A stretch of DNA of 64,000 nt from Bacteroidales bacterium (GCA_021108035.1 JAIORQ010000100.1:20210-84209), one strand, 5' to 3'. Shown: positions 8,893 to 52,689, counted from the stretch's first letter. Numbers and translations are program-made. Notes: a model not told the origin generated them from the sequence alone.

Positions 8893-9085
8893 TTACCGCA
8901 ATATTAGTAATTATTTTGCAATTATTTTTATATGTTTATGTTTATAATTTTAAAGATACTGTAGTCAACCTATCGGCAAACAGGGAACATCAATGATTAA
9001 ATAATTATTCCTCTTATTGTTTTAATAATAATTTAATCCGGGAAATTTCGTTTTTTGCATACATTGTAAATTATATCTGAGATAA

Positions 9086-33565: not shown

Positions 33566-33573
33566 TAAATTTG
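33566..33573 (+). promoter_or_regulatory. -7 box (TAAATTTG) of the KilA-N gene
   Basis: TAnnTTTG ending 20 bp before the ATG at 33593. Confidence 0.6.
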
Positions 33574-33592
33574 TCGTATATAAATTATTATT

Positions 33593-34459
33593 ATGAGTAA
33601 AACGACAAAAATACAAGTTGAAGACAAAATAATTTCAATTATAAAGAAAGACCGCCAAGATTACATTTGTTTGACTGATATGGTTCGTGAAGAAGAAGGA
33701 AATGACCATATCCGAAATTGGATGAGAAATAGGAATACTGTTGAATTTCTCGGACTTTGGGAAACTTTACATAACCCAAATTTTAAACCTGTCGAATTCG
33801 ACACCTTTAGAAAACAAGCCGGATTAAACAATTTCAATTTGACACCTAAAAAGTGGATTGAAACTACAAATGCAATTGGTATAACATCTAAATCAGGCAG
33901 ATACGGCGGAACCTATGCACATAAAGATTTAGCCTTTGAATTCGGTGCTTGGATTAGTCCAATGTTCAAACTTCTTCTGATAAAGGAATTTCAAAGGTTA
34001 AAAGAGATTGAAACCAATAAATACAATCTTGAATGGAATGTTAAACGAATATTAAGCAAAACAAATTACCAGATTCATACAGATGCTATTAAGGAGCATA
34101 TTATTCCAAAAAAGAGTTATAGTAAAAGTGTTGAATGGATTGTTTATGCAGAAGAAGCAGACTTGTTGAATGTTGCAATGTATGAATGTACCGCAAAAGA
34201 CTGGAGGGAAGCAAATTCTGAAAACGCAAAAAAAGGGTTGAATATTAGAGATTTTTCAAGTATTAATGAATTAGTAGTGTTATCAAACCTTGAAAATCTA
34301 AATTCCGTTATGATTGCTGAAAACATTAGTAAAGTTGAAAGATTTAAACAACTGAAAAAGGTAGCTGTTTCTCAATTAAACACTTTGGATAATAAGGACT
34401 TTATGAAATCTTTAAAAAGGCTTAATGAAAGAACTTATATTGAAGAAAAGACAAATTAA
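33593..34459 (+). CDS. KilA-N domain DNA-binding protein
   Basis: DYICLTDM, IRNWMRNRNTVEFLGLWE..HNPNFK, SKSGRYGGTYAHKDLAFEFGAWISP.FKL.LIKEFQRLK. Confidence 0.92.
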   Translation: MSKTTKIQVEDKIISIIKKDRQDYICLTDMVREEEGNDHIRNWMRNRNTVEFLGLWETLHNPNFKPVEFDTFRKQAGLNNFNLTPKKWIETTNAIGITSKSGRYGGTYAHKDLAFEFGAWISPMFKLLLIKEFQRLKEIETNKYNLEWNVKRILSKTNYQIHTDAIKEHIIPKKSYSKSVEWIVYAEEADLLNVAMYECTAKDWREANSENAKKGLNIRDFSSINELVVLSNLENLNSVMIAENISKVERFKQLKKVAVSQLNTLDNKDFMKSLKRLNERTYIEEKTN

Positions 34460-46306: not shown

Positions 46307-46939
46307 TTAAATTAACCATCGAATTATTTCAAATGCTTCCGCATAAATACATCCTGCCTGTCCTCCTCTGGTTCTGAGGACACTTTCAATAAAGTTTTTA
46401 TCAACATAATCTCTGCCGAGTTGAGAAATATATTTTTTTATGGAACTTATTTTAAGTTTAACATGCTTTTCTGTAAGTCTAATGAATAAATTAGTTGTAA
46501 AGGTTAAATTATTCCAAGGAATTTCATATCCAACTAATGTTGTTTTTTTGAAAGCTCTAAAACCCTCATTTCTTATAACTTGGTGGTCTTGGTGTGTGTC
46601 AAAAGTTGACGGTAAAAAAACTATATCCGGTTTTATATCAGTTCTTATTTTTAAGATATAATCTAATATTTCTTGTCTAAATTCCGGAAACTTCCTAGCT
46701 TGGAATGAATTTATTTCAAAATTTTTTTTTATGCCTAGTATCTCCATTGCCTCACGCATATTTATTTTATTGATATTTTTATCAAATCTGGAGGGTATAG
46801 AGATTTCAGCTGCTGAAAAAGCGACACAAAAAACGTCATTTCCGTTTTCTGTAAATTTAGCAATTGACCCGCCACAACCAAATTCAGCATCGTCAGTATG
46901 TGGTGCAAGTATTAATATTCTTGAATCTTTATTTATCAT
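46307..46939 (-). CDS. PIG-L family deacetylase
   Basis: LAPHTDDAEFGCGG, DTHQDH, YEIPW, EAFE. Confidence 0.93.
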   Translation of the reverse strand: MINKDSRILILAPHTDDAEFGCGGSIAKFTENGNDVFCVAFSAAEISIPSRFDKNINKINMREAMEILGIKKNFEINSFQARKFPEFRQEILDYILKIRTDIKPDIVFLPSTFDTHQDHQVIRNEGFRAFKKTTLVGYEIPWNNLTFTTNLFIRLTEKHVKLKISSIKKYISQLGRDYVDKNFIESVLRTRGGQAGCIYAEAFEIIRWLI

Positions 46940-48102
46940 TTTAATATTTTTTTAACTATATTTCCAAGAGGTTTTAATGGTCTCAAAACCGGATAAGTAT
47001 TATACAAAGACAGCTCTGTTTTAAATTCGGTATGTTCTCTACGAGGGGCATTTATGTATAATTCAAATTCTTGCTCAGAAAAACCCAACTTTTTTAACAC
47101 AAACTCCTTATCTTCCTCACATTGTTCTTTATTATACATTGGTTTTTCCAATTCTTTCAGGGCTTCGTCTTTTGTAATTTGGCCTGAACATATTAGGTTT
47201 GATAAATGTGCTTTTCGTTTATCTATCCCGACCTTTTTCGGTAGAATATATCCTTGATAAAAACGTGTGAAGATTGACTCGTAATGTTTTCCGCCGTAAT
47301 CTTTCCAGTCTAATTCTGATATGATTGTTTCTTTTATTTCACTTTTAACATACAACAGATAATTTAACAAATCAACGGTTTGTATGCCTTTAACTTTTTG
47401 GTAATAATGTTTTGCTTTTGAGCCGAAAAAAGGAAAGGTTTTTAAAGGAATTGTTCCGTATTTTTTATGAATATCTTTGATATTGACGTGATCAGCCTTA
47501 TTAAAAATCCAAGATTTCGGTAACAGAGACTCGGTAACAACATTATTGCCCGAAAGAATATACTTTATATTGTTTTGAGCTGCAATTTTATAAATTGTTC
47601 CAAAAATAGCATGGTCTGTTATTGCTTCTATATCAATAACATTAGCTTTGAAATAAGCAAGTTGAATATCCCGAAACTCATTCCAATTTATAACATAAGT
47701 TTCTAAATCAAAATCAAGTTTAGTAATAATATTTTCGATGTTTTTTACTGCAAGTTCAGAATTCCAACCATTATCAAAATGCACGCAAAGAACTCGCAAT
47801 CCTGCTTTTTTTGCAATATATGCTAAATAGGTACTGTCCACACCGCCGCTGACACCAAGAAGACAATCATATTTTTTATTTTTCCCGGAGTTTTTAATGT
47901 TTTGAATACTTTCTTCAAATTTTTGTATCCCTTTTTCTTCTTTTAAAACATGTTTTTTCTCTTCAATAAAATATTCGTGATAATAATTGCAAACCCCGTT
48001 TTTATCAAAAGTTATATTAGGGTCAGCAATGTTATCCATTACTGTTTTGGTGCATTGCCGGCAGTTATCGGGGATAAACTTTGGGTTTACGTAGTGTTTC
48101 AT
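46936..48102 (-). CDS. N-acetyl sugar amidotransferase (WbuX/WbpG/PseA-like)
   Basis: CRQCTKTVMD, YDCLLGVSGGVDS, HFDNGWNSELA, YGGKHYES.FTRF, DKRKAHLS.LI.SGQ. Confidence 0.93.
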   Translation of the reverse strand: MKHYVNPKFIPDNCRQCTKTVMDNIADPNITFDKNGVCNYYHEYFIEEKKHVLKEEKGIQKFEESIQNIKNSGKNKKYDCLLGVSGGVDSTYLAYIAKKAGLRVLCVHFDNGWNSELAVKNIENIITKLDFDLETYVINWNEFRDIQLAYFKANVIDIEAITDHAIFGTIYKIAAQNNIKYILSGNNVVTESLLPKSWIFNKADHVNIKDIHKKYGTIPLKTFPFFGSKAKHYYQKVKGIQTVDLLNYLLYVKSEIKETIISELDWKDYGGKHYESIFTRFYQGYILPKKVGIDKRKAHLSNLICSGQITKDEALKELEKPMYNKEQCEEDKEFVLKKLGFSEQEFELYINAPRREHTEFKTELSLYNTYPVLRPLKPLGNIVKKILK

Positions 48103-48477
48103 TATAGAATAGGTTTAGCATCTTTTATATTAATGTTTGTTTTAGAGAGAGAATTGTCGGAGCTGGTTAAAAAATCATCTGCAATTATCCTTAAACATTT
48201 TTGGCAGAACATATTATCTGTTTTTTTCATCATCCAAGTTACTTTTTCAAATAATTCGACAGGAAAATTATTTATTCTTTGTTCAACATCTATTTCGTTA
48301 ATTATATTTTTTTCTTTTGTTTACAAAAAAGTCAAGGTCTTCACTATATCTGTGATTCAAATAAAACCGGACAAGTGCAGTTCCGCCGGTTAAGTAAAAA
48401 GGCAAATTTAATGTTTTCCAAAAAACAAGAAATTTATCTTGTAGCCGGTATAATTTCGTGTAACCTGTTTTTAACAT
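48102..48477 (-). pseudogene. AbiEii-type nucleotidyltransferase toxin with an internal deletion/frameshift
   Basis: Not in the ORF track. ATG 48477: MLKTGYTKLYRLQDKFL...FYLTGGTALVRFYLNHRYSEDLDFFVN, stop at 48298. A second frame (48317-48102) gives KEKNIINEIDVEQRINNFPVELFEKVTW...DNSL and ends TAATG on the amidotransferase start. Confidence 0.85.
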
Positions 48478-48736
48478 AAAAATAGTTTTTTCGTAATGAC
48501 GGAAATCTTAATTTATTGATTGTTTTATCTGTTAATAAAAGTTTAGCGGTATTTATATCAAATATTTGTAAAACAATAAACCAAGGAAAAATTTCAATAG
48601 TTTTTTTAAACAAACCGTCAATATCATAATGTCCTGCAAATTTAGCCTCGCCTTTTATAAGTTTATCAACTTCTTCGGGTGAGATTTTGTAATCCCACAT
48701 TAGTTGCCGGTATATTTTTTCCTTTTCTTTTTCCAC
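48434..48736 (-). CDS. Small helical protein, probable antitoxin partner of the AbiEii pseudogene
   Basis: Overlaps the toxin start by 44 bp; LMWDY motif. GTG 48736 preferred because TTG 48766 lies inside hisF and upstream of the promoter box. Confidence 0.6.
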   Translation of the reverse strand: MEKEKEKIYRQLMWDYKISPEEVDKLIKGEAKFAGHYDIDGLFKKTIEIFPWFIVLQIFDINTAKLLLTDKTINKLRFPSLRKNYFYVKNRLHEIIPATR

Positions 48737-48744
48737 AATACCTG

Positions 48745-48752
48745 CAAAGTTA
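48745..48752 (-). promoter_or_regulatory. -7 box TAACTTTG whose first three bases are the hisF-like stop codon
   Basis: Forward CAAAGTTA; stop codon at 48750-48752. Confidence 0.55.
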
Positions 48753-49523
48753 AGATATTTTTTCAAAAATAAATTCTTTAAGGTGTTTCTGAGAAGGGTA
48801 ATTAATTAAAACACCTCTGTTTTTGCTTTTGTAAACAAACATTGAACCTGCTGATACTGCTGATGCTCCGCCGATTATTACAGCTTTTGCAAAATCGTCA
48901 ATGTTTGAAGCACCTCCGTTTGCAACAACCGGTATGCTGACATTATCAGAAACAAGCTTTATCAAATCAATATCATATCCGCTAAAAGTTCCTTCTTTGT
49001 CAATTGTGGTTAAAATAATTTCTCCGGCACCGTGATTTTCAATTGTTTTAACAAAATCAGTCAGTTTTTGTTTTACTTTTCTTTTTCCGGAATTAGTATA
49101 ACAAACATATTTTCCGAACAAGTCTTTTTTTACATCAACTGATGCTACAATGCTTTGATTTCCGTATATTTTTGCTGCTTCTGTAATTAATATCGGCTTA
49201 TTGCCGGCAGAAGAATTAATTATTATTTTTTCAACACCAATACTAAAAATTCTTTTTATTTGATCAATATTTTTTATTCCGCCGCCATATCCGAGAGGCA
49301 TAAAACATTCCGAAGCAATTTCTTCAATAATTTGATAATTCGGTTCTTTTTTGAGATTTGTTGCTTCAATGTCGAGAAAAACAAGTTCGTCAATTTCTTT
49401 TTCGTTAAAGATTTTAACAGCGTTTACAGGATCGCCTATGTAATTTGGTTTTTTGAATTTTATTGTTTTTACAAGACCTCCTTTTTGCAATAATAAAACG
49501 GGTATTACTCTTATTCGTTTCAT
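48750..49523 (-). CDS. HisF-like cyclase subunit of the amidotransferase complex (WbuZ-like)
   Basis: RVIPVLLL..GGLVKT..F....YIGDPVNAVKIFNEKE.DEL, MPLGYGGGI, GAGEI, GT..GYD, AVSAGS.FV; context shows it is the polysaccharide paralogue. Confidence 0.93.
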   Translation of the reverse strand: MKRIRVIPVLLLQKGGLVKTIKFKKPNYIGDPVNAVKIFNEKEIDELVFLDIEATNLKKEPNYQIIEEIASECFMPLGYGGGIKNIDQIKRIFSIGVEKIIINSSAGNKPILITEAAKIYGNQSIVASVDVKKDLFGKYVCYTNSGKRKVKQKLTDFVKTIENHGAGEIILTTIDKEGTFSGYDIDLIKLVSDNVSIPVVANGGASNIDDFAKAVIIGGASAVSAGSMFVYKSKNRGVLINYPSQKHLKEFIFEKIS

Positions 49524-49528
49524 ATAAT

Positions 49529-50143
49529 TTAAAATTCGGTCAAAGATTGTTCTGTCAGAAATTTTTTTATCTCATTTTCAGAAGGGTTTTCCGATAAAAA
49601 AGTAACAGGTTCGGAATAATCAATGTCATCGAAATATGATAGTTGTTGATGAAATAATTTTATATTAAAAGCATCTGCAAAAATTTGTTTTGCCCTGTTG
49701 GTTATTTGATTAAGTGTGATTTCTGATTTCAAAATAAAATACATATCTATATAATCTTTCCATTTGGCTCTGCCTCCGAATGCATAGGCTTTCATTGCTG
49801 CCAAATCAAGTAAAGACGGCAAAGTAATAATATCTTTAAATTTGTGTTTGTGTTCTGTTTTAAAAGGAAAATTAAAAAATGTAAGCTTAACTCCTCCGGT
49901 TACAATATGGAATTGGTCATACGCTTCATGTAGTATTGTATAGATAATTTCATTTTTTTTTAGGAAGTTCTTAATACTTCGCCTTTTTACATTTTTATGA
50001 GTAAATAAATCAAAATCAATTGAACGCCTGTGTCCGATGTAAAGAGCAATCGCTGTTCCGCCAACAAGATAATAATCTGTTGAAAAAACAGAAACAACTG
50101 AAAGTAAGTCTGTTTGTTCTTTATTTAAAATTTCAGTGTGCAT
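49529..50143 (-). CDS. AbiEii-type nucleotidyltransferase toxin (appears intact)
   Basis: YYLVGGTAIALYIGHRRSIDFDLF, LAAMKAYA..GRAKWKDYIDMYFI. Confidence 0.92.
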   Translation of the reverse strand: MHTEILNKEQTDLLSVVSVFSTDYYLVGGTAIALYIGHRRSIDFDLFTHKNVKRRSIKNFLKKNEIIYTILHEAYDQFHIVTGGVKLTFFNFPFKTEHKHKFKDIITLPSLLDLAAMKAYAFGGRAKWKDYIDMYFILKSEITLNQITNRAKQIFADAFNIKLFHQQLSYFDDIDYSEPVTFLSENPSENEIKKFLTEQSLTEF

Positions 50144-50408
50144 ATTTTTGAAAATACAGATTAAAAAAATTAGTAACTTGCGGGAAATAATTAACCCTTT
50201 TTCTTTGAGTTTGTTTGTAAAAAATATCAGCTACATAATTAATTTCCAGCAAATTAAACAGTTTTTTTACAGATTTTTCATCCCCGTAATTTAAGATAAA
50301 TTCAACTAAAACTTCGTGGCTTATATCTTGTTTTTTTTCTTCGGGAATATACCAAAAAAGAGATGAATTTTCTTTTATGAATTCTTTTATTTCAGGTGAG
50401 TTTTTCAT
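50133..50408 (-). CDS. Small protein, probable antitoxin of the downstream AbiEii toxin
   Basis: LFWYIP...VEFILNYGD motif; 11-bp overlap with the toxin start. ATG 50408 preferred because TTG 50444 lies inside the promoter box. Confidence 0.7.
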   Translation of the reverse strand: MKNSPEIKEFIKENSSLFWYIPEEKKQDISHEVLVEFILNYGDEKSVKKLFNLLEINYVADIFYKQTQRKRVNYFPQVTNFFNLYFQKYAH

Positions 50409-50441
50409 GTATTTAAAATTAATCACGGATGTTTCAGAATA

Positions 50442-50449
50442 CAAATTTA
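50442..50449 (-). promoter_or_regulatory. -7 box TAAATTTG whose first three bases are the hisH-like stop codon
   Basis: Forward CAAATTTA; stop codon at 50447-50449. Confidence 0.55.
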
Positions 50450-51064
50450 GTAATTTTCAATAAAATTTCTCAACACTTGCATCCCAAATTTATGGCTTTT
50501 TTCGGGATGAAATTGGATTCCTGTGATATTATCCTTTTCTAAGCCGACAGTAAATTCGTAACCATAAATTGTCTTTGCAGATATATCTTCCTCGTTATTT
50601 GATTTCAAATGATATGAATGAACAAAATAAAACCTTGCATCATCGGGCATATTTCGGAATAATTTGCTTTGCTTGTTATATTCAATCTCATTCCAACCCA
50701 TATGCGGAATTTTGTAGTTTTTTGGAAGTTTATTTTTATCAAAGGCAACAGTTTCAGCATCAAACCAAGCAAGACCTTTTTTTTGACCCTCTTCACTGCT
50801 TTTGGTAAATAATTGCACACCGAGACAAATACCAAGAATAGGGTTTTTGTCTTCCAAGACTTTTTTATTAAGTATCGGAATAAGTCCTGAATTTTCAAGT
50901 TGTTCCATTCCGTAGTCAAAAGAACCTACACCCGGGAGTATTAATTTTTCAGATTGCTCAATATCTTCAATTTTACCGGAAATTATTGATTTATACCCGA
51001 TTTTTTTGAGCATATTTTGTATTGAGCGGACATTGCCGGCTTTATAGTCTATTATTGTGAGCAT
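50447..51064 (-). CDS. HisH-like glutamine amidotransferase subunit (WbuY-like)
   Basis: IIDY..GNV.S, LILPGVGSF, ILGICLG.QL, PHMGWN, FYFVHSY, QFHPEKS. Confidence 0.94.
   Translation of the reverse strand: MLTIIDYKAGNVRSIQNMLKKIGYKSIISGKIEDIEQSEKLILPGVGSFDYGMEQLENSGLIPILNKKVLEDKNPILGICLGVQLFTKSSEEGQKKGLAWFDAETVAFDKNKLPKNYKIPHMGWNEIEYNKQSKLFRNMPDDARFYFVHSYHLKSNNEEDISAKTIYGYEFTVGLEKDNITGIQFHPEKSHKFGMQVLRNFIENY
51002..51064 (-). repeat. Copy A of a 63-bp direct repeat (first 21 codons of the hisH-like gene)
   Basis: Matches 52518-52580 with 4 substitutions. Confidence 0.92.
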
Positions 51065-51155
51065 TATATTTTTAGATGTTTTTTAATTGATTATCTATTT
51101 GAATACTGAAAAAAGATGTTTCGATAATTGATTTAATAGAACTTTCTCAATCATA

Positions 51156-52430
51156 TTATTTTTTTATAAAATCAGATAAATTCCATGCCTGTATATGTTT
51201 TATACCGTTTCTTTCGTTAAGAATAATATCGTCTAATGAGATAACTATTTTCGGAAAATTGTCGTTAATAGATTCAAGCGAACGGTATTCTCGGTCTATT
51301 GTTTTTTCATCTGTCATTAAATAAGTTACTTGTATATAAATTGGTTTTGCATTTTTTATTGCTACAAAATCAACTTCTTTATTTCGTAAATACCCGACGT
51401 AAACGTCAAAACCGGCATTTATTAATTGTAAGTAAACAAGATTTTCTAATTTATATCCTATTCCGTAAGCAAAACCTGCGTAAATATAATTTTTGTAAGA
51501 CAGGTCGTTTATATAAAATTTAAAACTGCCTGCCAGCGTTTTTTTTCCGGAAATATTATATTTTTCTGCTTGATGAATCAAAAAGCTGTTTTTCAGATAA
51601 TTTATATAGTTAGCAATGGTTTCGTAACTGGTTTTTTTATTTTTGCTTTTATAATAGTTGACAATATTATTTATAGAAATTAAATTTGATGCGTTATTTA
51701 TAAGAAAACTAAAAATATCTTCAAGCAGTTTGGCATCTTTTATTTTGTATCTTTGAATAATATCTCGCAGTAAAATTGTGTCTTTTACAGCAGTAACATA
51801 GTGTCTTTTAGTCTCTTCATTACTTAAATTAAACAATTCGGGCAAACCGCCTGAATTAAGATATTGCAAAAAACTTTGTTTTGTATTTTGTAACTTAGCA
51901 AAAGTAATATATTCGATATAAGAAAACGGCAATATTTGAAACTCCACATATCTGCCTGATAAATAGGTGGATAATTCTCCGGCAAGTAGTTCGGAATTTG
52001 AACCTGTAATAAATATTTCAAATTCCCGTGTATAATCTTGCGAAAAGGAATTAATTGTTTTCTCCCATGAATTTATATTTTGAATTTCATCTACAAAAAG
52101 GTATATTTTGCCTTCGGGTTTTATTTTTTCAATATATAAATTTATTAAATCTGATAAATCAATGTGTGTTTGTATGAAATCAAAATCGGTAAATTCTTTA
52201 TTAATATACAAAATATTTTTTGCAGGCGTATTATTATTTTTCAAATAACGCATTATTTGTCGTAAAATATAACTTTTCCCGCTTCTGCGTTGACCTACAA
52301 GAACTTTTATTAGTTTATTTGATAAGTAATTTTGTATTTTGGACAGATAATATTTTCGAATAAATCCGTAATTTGTGATATTTTTATCCCAAAAGTTATA
52401 TTTTTTTAATATTGAGATTTTATCAGACAT
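51156..52430 (-). CDS. AAA+ ATPase with a DUF4143-type C-terminal domain
   Basis: Walker A GQRRSGKS, Walker B LFVDEIQ, ITGSNS, YLNSGGLPE, KFYIND, LENLVY..L, EVDFV. Confidence 0.92.
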   Translation of the reverse strand: MSDKISILKKYNFWDKNITNYGFIRKYYLSKIQNYLSNKLIKVLVGQRRSGKSYILRQIMRYLKNNNTPAKNILYINKEFTDFDFIQTHIDLSDLINLYIEKIKPEGKIYLFVDEIQNINSWEKTINSFSQDYTREFEIFITGSNSELLAGELSTYLSGRYVEFQILPFSYIEYITFAKLQNTKQSFLQYLNSGGLPELFNLSNEETKRHYVTAVKDTILLRDIIQRYKIKDAKLLEDIFSFLINNASNLISINNIVNYYKSKNKKTSYETIANYINYLKNSFLIHQAEKYNISGKKTLAGSFKFYINDLSYKNYIYAGFAYGIGYKLENLVYLQLINAGFDVYVGYLRNKEVDFVAIKNAKPIYIQVTYLMTDEKTIDREYRSLESINDNFPKIVISLDDIILNERNGIKHIQAWNLSDFIKK

Positions 52431-52517: not shown

Positions 52518-52580
52518 TTTTTTGAGCATATTTTGTATTGAGCAGACGTTGCCGGCTTTGTAGTTTATTATTGTGAGCAT
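52518..52580 (-). repeat. Copy B of the hisH 5' duplication, a dead stub (MLTIINYKAGNVCSIQNMLKKLNL*)
   Basis: 59/63 identical to 51002-51064, read directly. Confidence 0.92.
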
Positions 52581-52689
52581 TAAGAAATTTATAGAACCTT
52601 TATAGCTTTTTATTAAAATTTGAAAATAATAGTTTAATCAATATCTGTTTTTAGCTTTGTCCCTGTTTTATAACAGACACAGCATTTTT

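Follow-up and report, generated by a model that had tools for sequence, protein, structure and literature searches.

AbiEii-type toxin–antitoxin cassettes without a recombinase at the junctions of a sugar-amidation operon in a Bacteroidales genome

AbiE type IV toxin–antitoxin (TA) systems combine a DUF1814/AbiEii nucleotidyltransferase toxin, marked by GG..A and DxD motifs, with the antitoxin AbiEi, a winged-helix transcriptional autoregulator of about 200-300 amino acids (aa); the two genes are bicistronic and overlapping, with the antitoxin first, and the systems show a wide horizontal spread (Dy et al. 2014, PMC3985639). In Escherichia coli, an AbiEi/AbiEii pair adjoins the group 2 capsule genes and is co-transcribed with them (PMC12488582). 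Here we describe a 64,000-nucleotide (nt) stretch of DNA from a Bacteroidales bacterium (GCA_021108035.1 JAIORQ010000100.1:20210-84209; hereafter the window), in which two gene pairs with AbiEii-type toxins, cassette 1 (AT1/TOX1) and cassette 2 (AT2/TOX2), occupy the two internal junctions of a sugar-amidation trio, wbuY-wbuZ-wbuX. We consider it about 70% probable that these two junctions, together with the upstream edge of the trio, were colonised by recombinase-less defence-type cassettes through ordinary recombination and survivor bias, with no targeting of stop codons.

The cassettes share with AbiE the toxin family and its motifs, the bicistronic arrangement with overlapping genes and the antitoxin first, and the wide horizontal spread. 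Their partner proteins, however, are only 91 and 100 aa long, have no detectable similarity to AbiEi (winged-helix plus C-terminal domain), and drew no match from Pfam, NCBIfam or PADLOC at thresholds as lenient as E 5; the toxins, predicted from sequence, are short (204-236 aa). Another AbiEii gene, in the related locus L014, does adjoin a canonical 221-aa AbiEi-like partner. As in E. coli, an AbiE-type module is linked to, and co-oriented with, a surface-polysaccharide cluster; whereas the E. coli pair lies upstream of its cluster on a pathogenicity island, the pairs described here lie between the subunit genes of an enzyme trio, and the occupant varies among relatives. Defence hotspots and capsule or O-antigen switching resemble this locus in their fixed flanks, changing occupants, homologous recombination in the flanks and mosaic identity breakpoints, but the site here is a 0-40-nt gap inside an operon, and every occupant is co-oriented with a stop-to-start fit. 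Integron cassettes, too, are small one- or two-gene units, often TA pairs, that are stacked in a uniform orientation and owe their expression to a promoter upstream; unlike these, the present cassettes have no attC and no 3' non-coding DNA, and normally bring their own predicted promoter. Since the toxin stop lies 5 nt before the next host ATG or overlaps it, there is no room for an attC. We detected no notable inverted repeat at the cassette ends, and no recombinase or integrase domain among the ~30 genes of the cluster (scanned with Pfam; IntI was sought within this cluster only). A first-pass annotation of the window had proposed inserted, horizontally mobile two-gene cassettes without a recombinase, and this description is upheld.

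Two AbiEii-type pairs within the amidation trio

The host is a metagenome-assembled genome (MAG) with 31% guanine plus cytosine (GC), and is present in marine-sediment metagenomes; the sequencing runs listed for it were all DNA metagenomes from sediment. A minus-strand polysaccharide biosynthesis cluster (~37.4 to 64 kb of the window) houses the cassette region and contains genes for glycosyltransferases, WbqC, GNAT, PIG-L, a flippase, DegT and a sugar nucleotidyltransferase. Profile matches identified the host trio as WbuY/HisH, AglZ/HisF2 (WbuZ) and WbuX, and the genes follow the order ATPase gene, wbuY, AT1-TOX1, wbuZ, AT2-TOX2 remnant, wbuX. The features of the trio and its two cassettes are as follows.

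50447-51064, minus strand: wbuY, HisH-like glutamine amidotransferase (TIGR01855, 228 bits; Pfam GATase)
50442-50449, minus strand: TAAATTTG, the wbuY stop TAA (50449-50447) plus ATTTG; Bacteroidota -7 box consensus, 41 nt before the AT1 ATG
50133-50408, minus strand: AT1, presumed antitoxin of 91 aa, ATG at 50408 (start fixed by homologues), 11-nt overlap with TOX1
49529-50143, minus strand: TOX1, intact AbiEii-type nucleotidyltransferase toxin of 204 aa (PF08843; PADLOC AbiEii)
48750-49523, minus strand: wbuZ, AglZ/HisF2 cyclase-like subunit (NF038364, 360 bits)
48745-48752, minus strand: TAACTTTG, the wbuZ stop TAA (48752-48750) plus CTTTG; -7 box consensus, with a box also at empty sites
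48434-48736, minus strand: AT2, presumed antitoxin of 100 aa, intact, GTG start at 48736, 67% identical to the partner in L037
48102-48477, minus strand: TOX2, AbiEii-type pseudogene (alignment to the intact G014 copy; PF08843 on the N-terminal 59 aa)
46936-48102, minus strand: wbuX, N-acetyl sugar amidotransferase with PP-loop (TIGR03573, 282 bits)

TOX1 matched PF08843 (AbiEii) at 45 bits (E 1.2e-11) and has more than 7900 homologues. Its nucleotidyltransferase motifs (GG[T]A, DxD) are invariant across 29 homologues, at G29 T30 A31, H38 R39 S41, D43 F44 D45 and K127-D133. TOX2, by comparison with the intact 236-aa gene of the same-genus genome G014, which has the same wbuZ-AT2-TOX2-wbuX order, carries a frame-breaking deletion of 335 base pairs (bp) at ~48322/48323, between TTTTTTG[T/A]AA microhomologies. 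PF08843 was matched by the N-terminal remnant of TOX2 at E 9e-9 and by the intact G014 toxin at E 4.4e-12, and an intact TOX2 allele is present on a metagenome contig from the sediment DNA run X6. Of the two TA cassettes originally proposed, cassette 1 is thus an intact pair, whereas the toxin of cassette 2 is a pseudogene; such decay, with the toxin gone and the antitoxin retained, is the usual pattern for TA pairs. The N-terminal parts of TOX1 and TOX2 are 37% identical; we found no similarity between AT1 and AT2, nor between TOX1 and the C-terminal remnant of TOX2. By analogy with AbiE, the cassettes are presumed to arrest growth and defend against phage, or to stabilise the locus.

TTG codons overlap the boxes but are not the antitoxin starts, which homologues fix at ATG 50408 for AT1 (N-terminus MKNSPEIKEF) and at GTG 48736 for AT2 (N-terminus VEKEKEKIYRQLMWDY, GTG read as Met). 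Both toxin ends do abut the next host gene, as had been reported: the TOX1 stop TAA (49531-49529) is followed by ATTAT and then by the wbuZ ATG at 49523, and the stop of the TOX2 remnant shares bases with the wbuX ATG as TAATG (48104-48100).

Other copies in this genome amount to a distant TOX1 relative on contig C10 and a 37-codon fragment on contig C3, and the cassettes are therefore not a multicopy element. The fragment (C3:96228-96338 of G000, 12 kb past the window end) resembles the nucleotidyltransferase motif region of TOX1 and is probably another decayed cassette. In the locus L045 (3990-4800, MAG of an Acetofilamentum sp.), the orthologous TOX1 is broken by an extra stretch and an in-frame stop, beside an AT1 with 79% identity to that of the window, a second instance of a lost toxin with a retained antitoxin.

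Stop codons, -7 boxes and junction states among relatives

The stops of wbuY and wbuZ, first annotated as hisH and hisF, both begin TAnnTTTG boxes, and we confirmed the strings and coordinates of the two. This box covers positions -12 to -5 of the transcription start, with median leaders of 24-32 nt (PMC9723704). The spacing from box to ATG at the cassettes is compatible with leaders of 0-29 nt, and from motif and spacing the -7 boxes are predicted promoters. In this genome, nTTTG directly follows the stop at 23 of 2466 TAA codons (0.93%); against this background, two such stops at neighbouring junctions are unusual. The configuration is not confined to cassettes: stop-overlapping boxes also mark cas1-cas2, hsdM-hsdS, truB-queA, a capE/capF-like pair and other ordinary junctions, in many cases at a distance of 8-30 nt from the following start. 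Judging from these examples, the overlap of stop and TAnnTTTG looks like a general way to place an internal sigma-A promoter in compact Bacteroidota operons.

We then compared the wbuZ|wbuX junction among related and distant operons, in which the following states were observed.

Window and G014: filled with cassette 2 (c2); box in the window TAACTTTG
G001 (same genus): empty; TAA-TTTTG (TAATTTTG), 14 nt, ATG
G024 (another genus): empty; TAA-TTTTG (TAATTTTG), 22 nt, ATG
L045/L126: filled (c2', antitoxin only 38% identical); TAAATTTG
L125: filled (c3, an unrelated DUF6922-like pair); TAACTTTG
L127: filled (c2''); TAATG join to wbuZ, no box
G039, L131 and L133 (distant): empty; no box

Because empty and differently filled sites are boxed alike, the box belongs to the host junction, or is at least independent of the occupant. 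At least four different AbiEii-type pairs and two empty states occur at this junction in related operons; all occupants lie in the same orientation, and the stop of every toxin shares bases with the wbuX ATG (TAATG or ATGA). These results mark wbuZ|wbuX as a real hotspot for AbiEii-type cassettes. The spacer past the box (11-22 nt) is not conserved even between the empty sites, so that breakpoints cannot be placed within it.

The wbuY|wbuZ junction holds cassette 1 in the window, G014, G001, G024, L045/L126 and L127, which represent three families, and a box at the wbuY stop is retained in three of these loci, 41 nt (window), 11 nt (G024, TAAATTTG) and 13 nt (L127, TAATTTTG) before the antitoxin start. 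In G001 and L045, a different AAA_14 gene is inserted between wbuY and AT1, and G001 retains a remnant TAAATTTG that is no longer a stop. The cassette is missing from the close operon L125 and from the distant G039 and L128-L133. L125 is the closest empty operon (WbuY 80% and WbuZ 77% identical) and reads TAAATATT, with no box; in full, its junction is TAA-ATATTTTT, then 31 nt, then ATG. Other empty sites read TAA-ACT-ATG (G039) and TAAATG (L128). Comparison with empty sites, which had been suggested as a check on the annotation, therefore gave a divided answer: for cassette 2, the empty sites of G001 and G024 already carry nTTTG after the stop, a finding that the annotation itself had named as a refutation, whereas for cassette 1 the closest empty site is box-less.

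Cassette 1 had also been described as bounded by a 6-bp repeat. TAAATT is indeed present at 50449-44 with a second copy at 49531-26, and by our own arithmetic the chance of its 3-nt extension past TAA is ~2% in 31% GC DNA. The repeat was seen only in the window and in G014, which has the same recombined segment (see below); it is absent at all diverged orthologous junctions, which read TAACA-ATG, TAG-ATG, TAAC-ATG and TAATG.

A survey of the TOX1 family across 185,579 species genomes yielded 80 loci at 48-59% identity, in Bacteroidota, Thermodesulfobacteriota, Cloacimonadota, Ignavibacteriota, Patescibacteria and archaeal MAGs; in nearly all 80 a partner of 89-99 aa overlaps the toxin start. 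More than 20 Bacteroidota loci carry TAT[AC]TTTG 12-34 nt 5' of the antitoxin ATG, in no stop codon, and the cassette 2 family follows the same pattern. Among the TOX1-family loci, the wbuY junction and L110 are the only places where the box begins with a host stop. The cassettes thus normally bring a complete predicted promoter of their own, and completion by a host TAA is the exception. The copies in G015 and L039 lie behind truncated glycosyltransferase fragments, with the box 17-40 nt past the stop. L155 was considered as a third host-stop box (ABC transporter stop, TAACTTTG) and was rejected, the cassette having its own TATATTTG 22 nt before the ATG.

Among the nearest neighbours of the 80 loci, genes of the AAA_14/DUF4143, AbiEii, HepT, PIN and sugar-nucleotide types are over-represented; the family shares arrays with MNT/HepT, PIN, AbiEi/AbiEii and DUF4143 genes, and is also found beside glycosyltransferase, Wzi and epimerase genes. 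In L015 (G015:C84, 8000-14800), four or five AbiEii-type pairs and one PIN pair are piled up over 6 kb on the border of a polysaccharide locus. Repeated pieces of a Wzt ATPase N-terminus and a glycosyltransferase C-terminus are interspersed among the pairs, which suggests that cassettes were copied along with bits of their neighbours. An AT1/TOX1 pair at 52-54% identity was also found in L062 and L055 (MAGs labelled Halobacteria or archaeon) and in L093 and L121 (Patescibacteria/candidate-phyla-radiation). Transfer of the pair seems to cross phyla and perhaps domains, with MAG binning errors as a possible source of such assignments.

Recombination and competing explanations

Identity between the window and G014 is 55-72% over most of TOX1, rises to 97-100% at ~49650, inside TOX1, continues at ~93% across wbuZ and cassette 2 as far as 100 nt into wbuX, and falls to 64-75% after ~48005. 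The interval from ~49650 to ~48005 is a recombined segment that carries cassette 2. As its ends lie inside a cassette and inside a host gene, such a segment can bring a cassette into a genome without a dedicated mechanism. In sediment DNA runs, including X6, contigs of related strains diverge at the gene borders 49524, 50454 and 51065 and at the TOX2 deletion point; these contigs are too short for clean empty-site alleles.

We also examined the toxin and antitoxin trees. In the toxin tree, the label "at this site" requires at least three changes: G024 pairs with L039 (99/90), L127 with L067/L075 (98/89) and the window weakly with L037 (91/11), and these partners all come from other contexts. 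In the antitoxin tree, G024, L127 and L126 form one clade (99/97), while the window, G001, L037 and L039 fall in an adjoining, poorly separated cluster, a topology that one or two origins of the wbuY-junction cassettes could produce. On that count, these cassettes would not represent several independent hits, and the discordance of the two trees points to recombination inside the cassette, not to repeated targeted insertion.

We propose that the cassettes entered by illegitimate or duplication-generating recombination, and were then spread and swapped among lineages by homologous recombination, with conserved host genes and conserved cassette ends as arms, a step for which the comparisons give direct evidence. 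The survivors would be only those co-oriented insertions that fit exactly from a stop to the next start and kept the operon working. The wbuZ box would be a host feature, and the wbuY box would have come with, or been selected after, one old insertion; the wbuY junction itself would be a single old junction, inherited and recombined. Several observations weigh against this account. At wbuY|wbuZ, in the loci compared, the box goes with the cassette. The three boxed cassettes at wbuZ|wbuX start right past the box and end at the wbuX ATG, which is tidier than random insertion predicts, and the empty sites may be either ancestral or secondary losses. Finally, in L110 an unrelated host stop, that of sucB (2-oxoacid dehydrogenase E2), forms TAAATTTG as TAA plus ATTTG, 14 nt before the antitoxin ATG.

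Some of the same observations would be expected if promoter-less cassettes were inserted directly after a host TAA, completing TAnnTTTG and switching on their cargo, as the first-pass annotation had inferred. The contrast at wbuY between TAA plus (A/T)TTTG at filled sites (window, G024 and L127) and TAAATATT at the closest empty site speaks for such a mechanism, as do the sucB junction and a genome background of merely 0.93% of TAA stops. Yet the empty wbuZ|wbuX sites already read TAATTTTG, more than 20 loci bear a complete cassette-borne TAT[AC]TTTG in no stop, and c2'' of L127 is joined to wbuZ as TAATG without any box. In addition, the junction antitoxins fit one or two origins, so that the wbuY cases would not be independent; the 6-bp repeat is not conserved; and in the G015 and L039 copies the box lies 17-40 nt past the stops of truncated host fragments. 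The expectation that the 5' boundary would consistently be TAA|nTTTG at unrelated host genes was likewise disappointed, with sucB as the one unrelated case against the >20 loci with their own box. We consider a mechanism aimed at stop codons improbable: most of the independent loci speak against it, and the locus can be explained without it. The box could alternatively have served as microhomology, through illegitimate recombination between the 8-bp -7 box of a cassette and a -7 box at the end of a host gene, which would explain both the junctions inside the box and the choice of promoter-bearing junctions as hotspots. Consistent with this, three different cassettes and the empty sites have wbuZ-TAA(n)TTTG in common and diverge right after it, free-standing cassettes begin with a box of the same consensus, and the TOX2 deletion is itself a 10-nt microhomology event in this DNA. 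Eight AT-rich bases are nevertheless weak evidence, the spacer past the box is too short and too variable for breakpoint placement, nothing beyond ATG matches at the right-hand junctions, L127 is box-less, and the closest empty wbuY site offers no box for pairing. This route is unlikely, although less so than stop-codon targeting.

The least probable explanation, to which we give very little credence, is that the pairs serve the acetamidino-sugar pathway as accessory enzymes or regulators (a nucleotidyltransferase and its partner), and are not selfish or defence modules. Retention of cassette 1 between wbuY and wbuZ across three families and the co-oriented, tightly packed genes would suit such a role, but many orthologous trios have no pairs, two toxins are broken (TOX2 in the window and TOX1 in L045), members of the same family adjoin other TA genes in unrelated settings and phyla, archaea among them, and the fold family is AbiEii. 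A broader speculation, about as doubtful as box microhomology, is that glycan-operon junctions act as docking sites for recombinase-less, promoter-to-stop TA or defence cassettes. In Bacteroidota these would join within the -7 box (a host TAA or host box with a cassette box), would land only where they are transcribed at once and leave the operon intact, and would later be exchanged by homologous recombination.

If the hotspot interpretation is true, the locus offers a small, clean example of defence or addiction genes riding recombination-prone surface-sugar loci, which are themselves phage receptors, and shows how an enzyme operon can accommodate such genes and remain intact. The short AbiEii toxin and its unannotated 90-100-aa partner form a very large family that crosses phyla, even domains. 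A new mode of mobility, as first claimed, would matter much more; the comparative evidence does not back that mode.

The ATPase insert and other neighbouring features

The upstream edge of the trio and a KilA-N gene outside the cassette region contribute the following features.

51156-52430, minus strand: AAA_14/DUF4143 ATPase gene, just upstream of wbuY (Pfam; PADLOC candidate defence family PDC-S01, PDLC04787, E 2.7e-139)
52518-52582, minus strand: upstream arm of a 65-nt direct repeat (94% identical), a dead stub that is the relic of the first ~21 wbuY codons
51002-51066, minus strand: downstream arm of the 65-nt direct repeat, the functional wbuY start
33593-34459, plus strand: KilA-N domain gene, 288 aa, in a row of envelope-protein genes; paralogues on contigs C31 and C22

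Insertion with long target duplication has been described for restriction-modification genes, in which the target gene stays intact because start or stop sites are often contained in the repeats (Nobusato/Furuta/Kobayashi; PMC2853133). The PDC-S01 ATPase gene resembles these insertions: it has no recombinase, its repeat of more than 30 bp lies over the start of the host gene, and that gene is intact. The AbiEii cassettes differ, with a 6-bp repeat or none for cassettes 1 and 2 against 65 nt for the ATPase gene, and the cargo here is not a restriction-modification system. Apart from chance AT-rich matches, a search for direct and inverted repeats between 46800 and 52800 returned only the 65-nt wbuY duplication. 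The dominant strain in run X6 is without the ATPase gene, as indicated by a drop in depth and a contig that diverges at 51065.

The KilA-N gene had been thought to obey the same stop-to-stop rule as the cassettes. It instead follows a 155-nt spacer after the upstream stop; inside this spacer, at 33566-33573, lies a TAAATTTG of its own, which is 27 nt from the ATG on the 5' side and not part of a host stop. The gene fits the rule only as an intergenic insert. A 633-aa gene considered as the KilA-N gene was rejected, as it encodes a membrane protein.

Two or three direct repeats of ~30 nt stand in front of the AAA_14/DUF4143 genes that are inserted between wbuY and AT1 in the relatives, in L013 (G001:C55, ~8955-9080, minus strand) and in L045 (2335-2450); one example of the repeat unit runs tgacaaaattaa..aaattatgtcaa. 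These repeats could be operators for the winged-helix domain of DUF4143.

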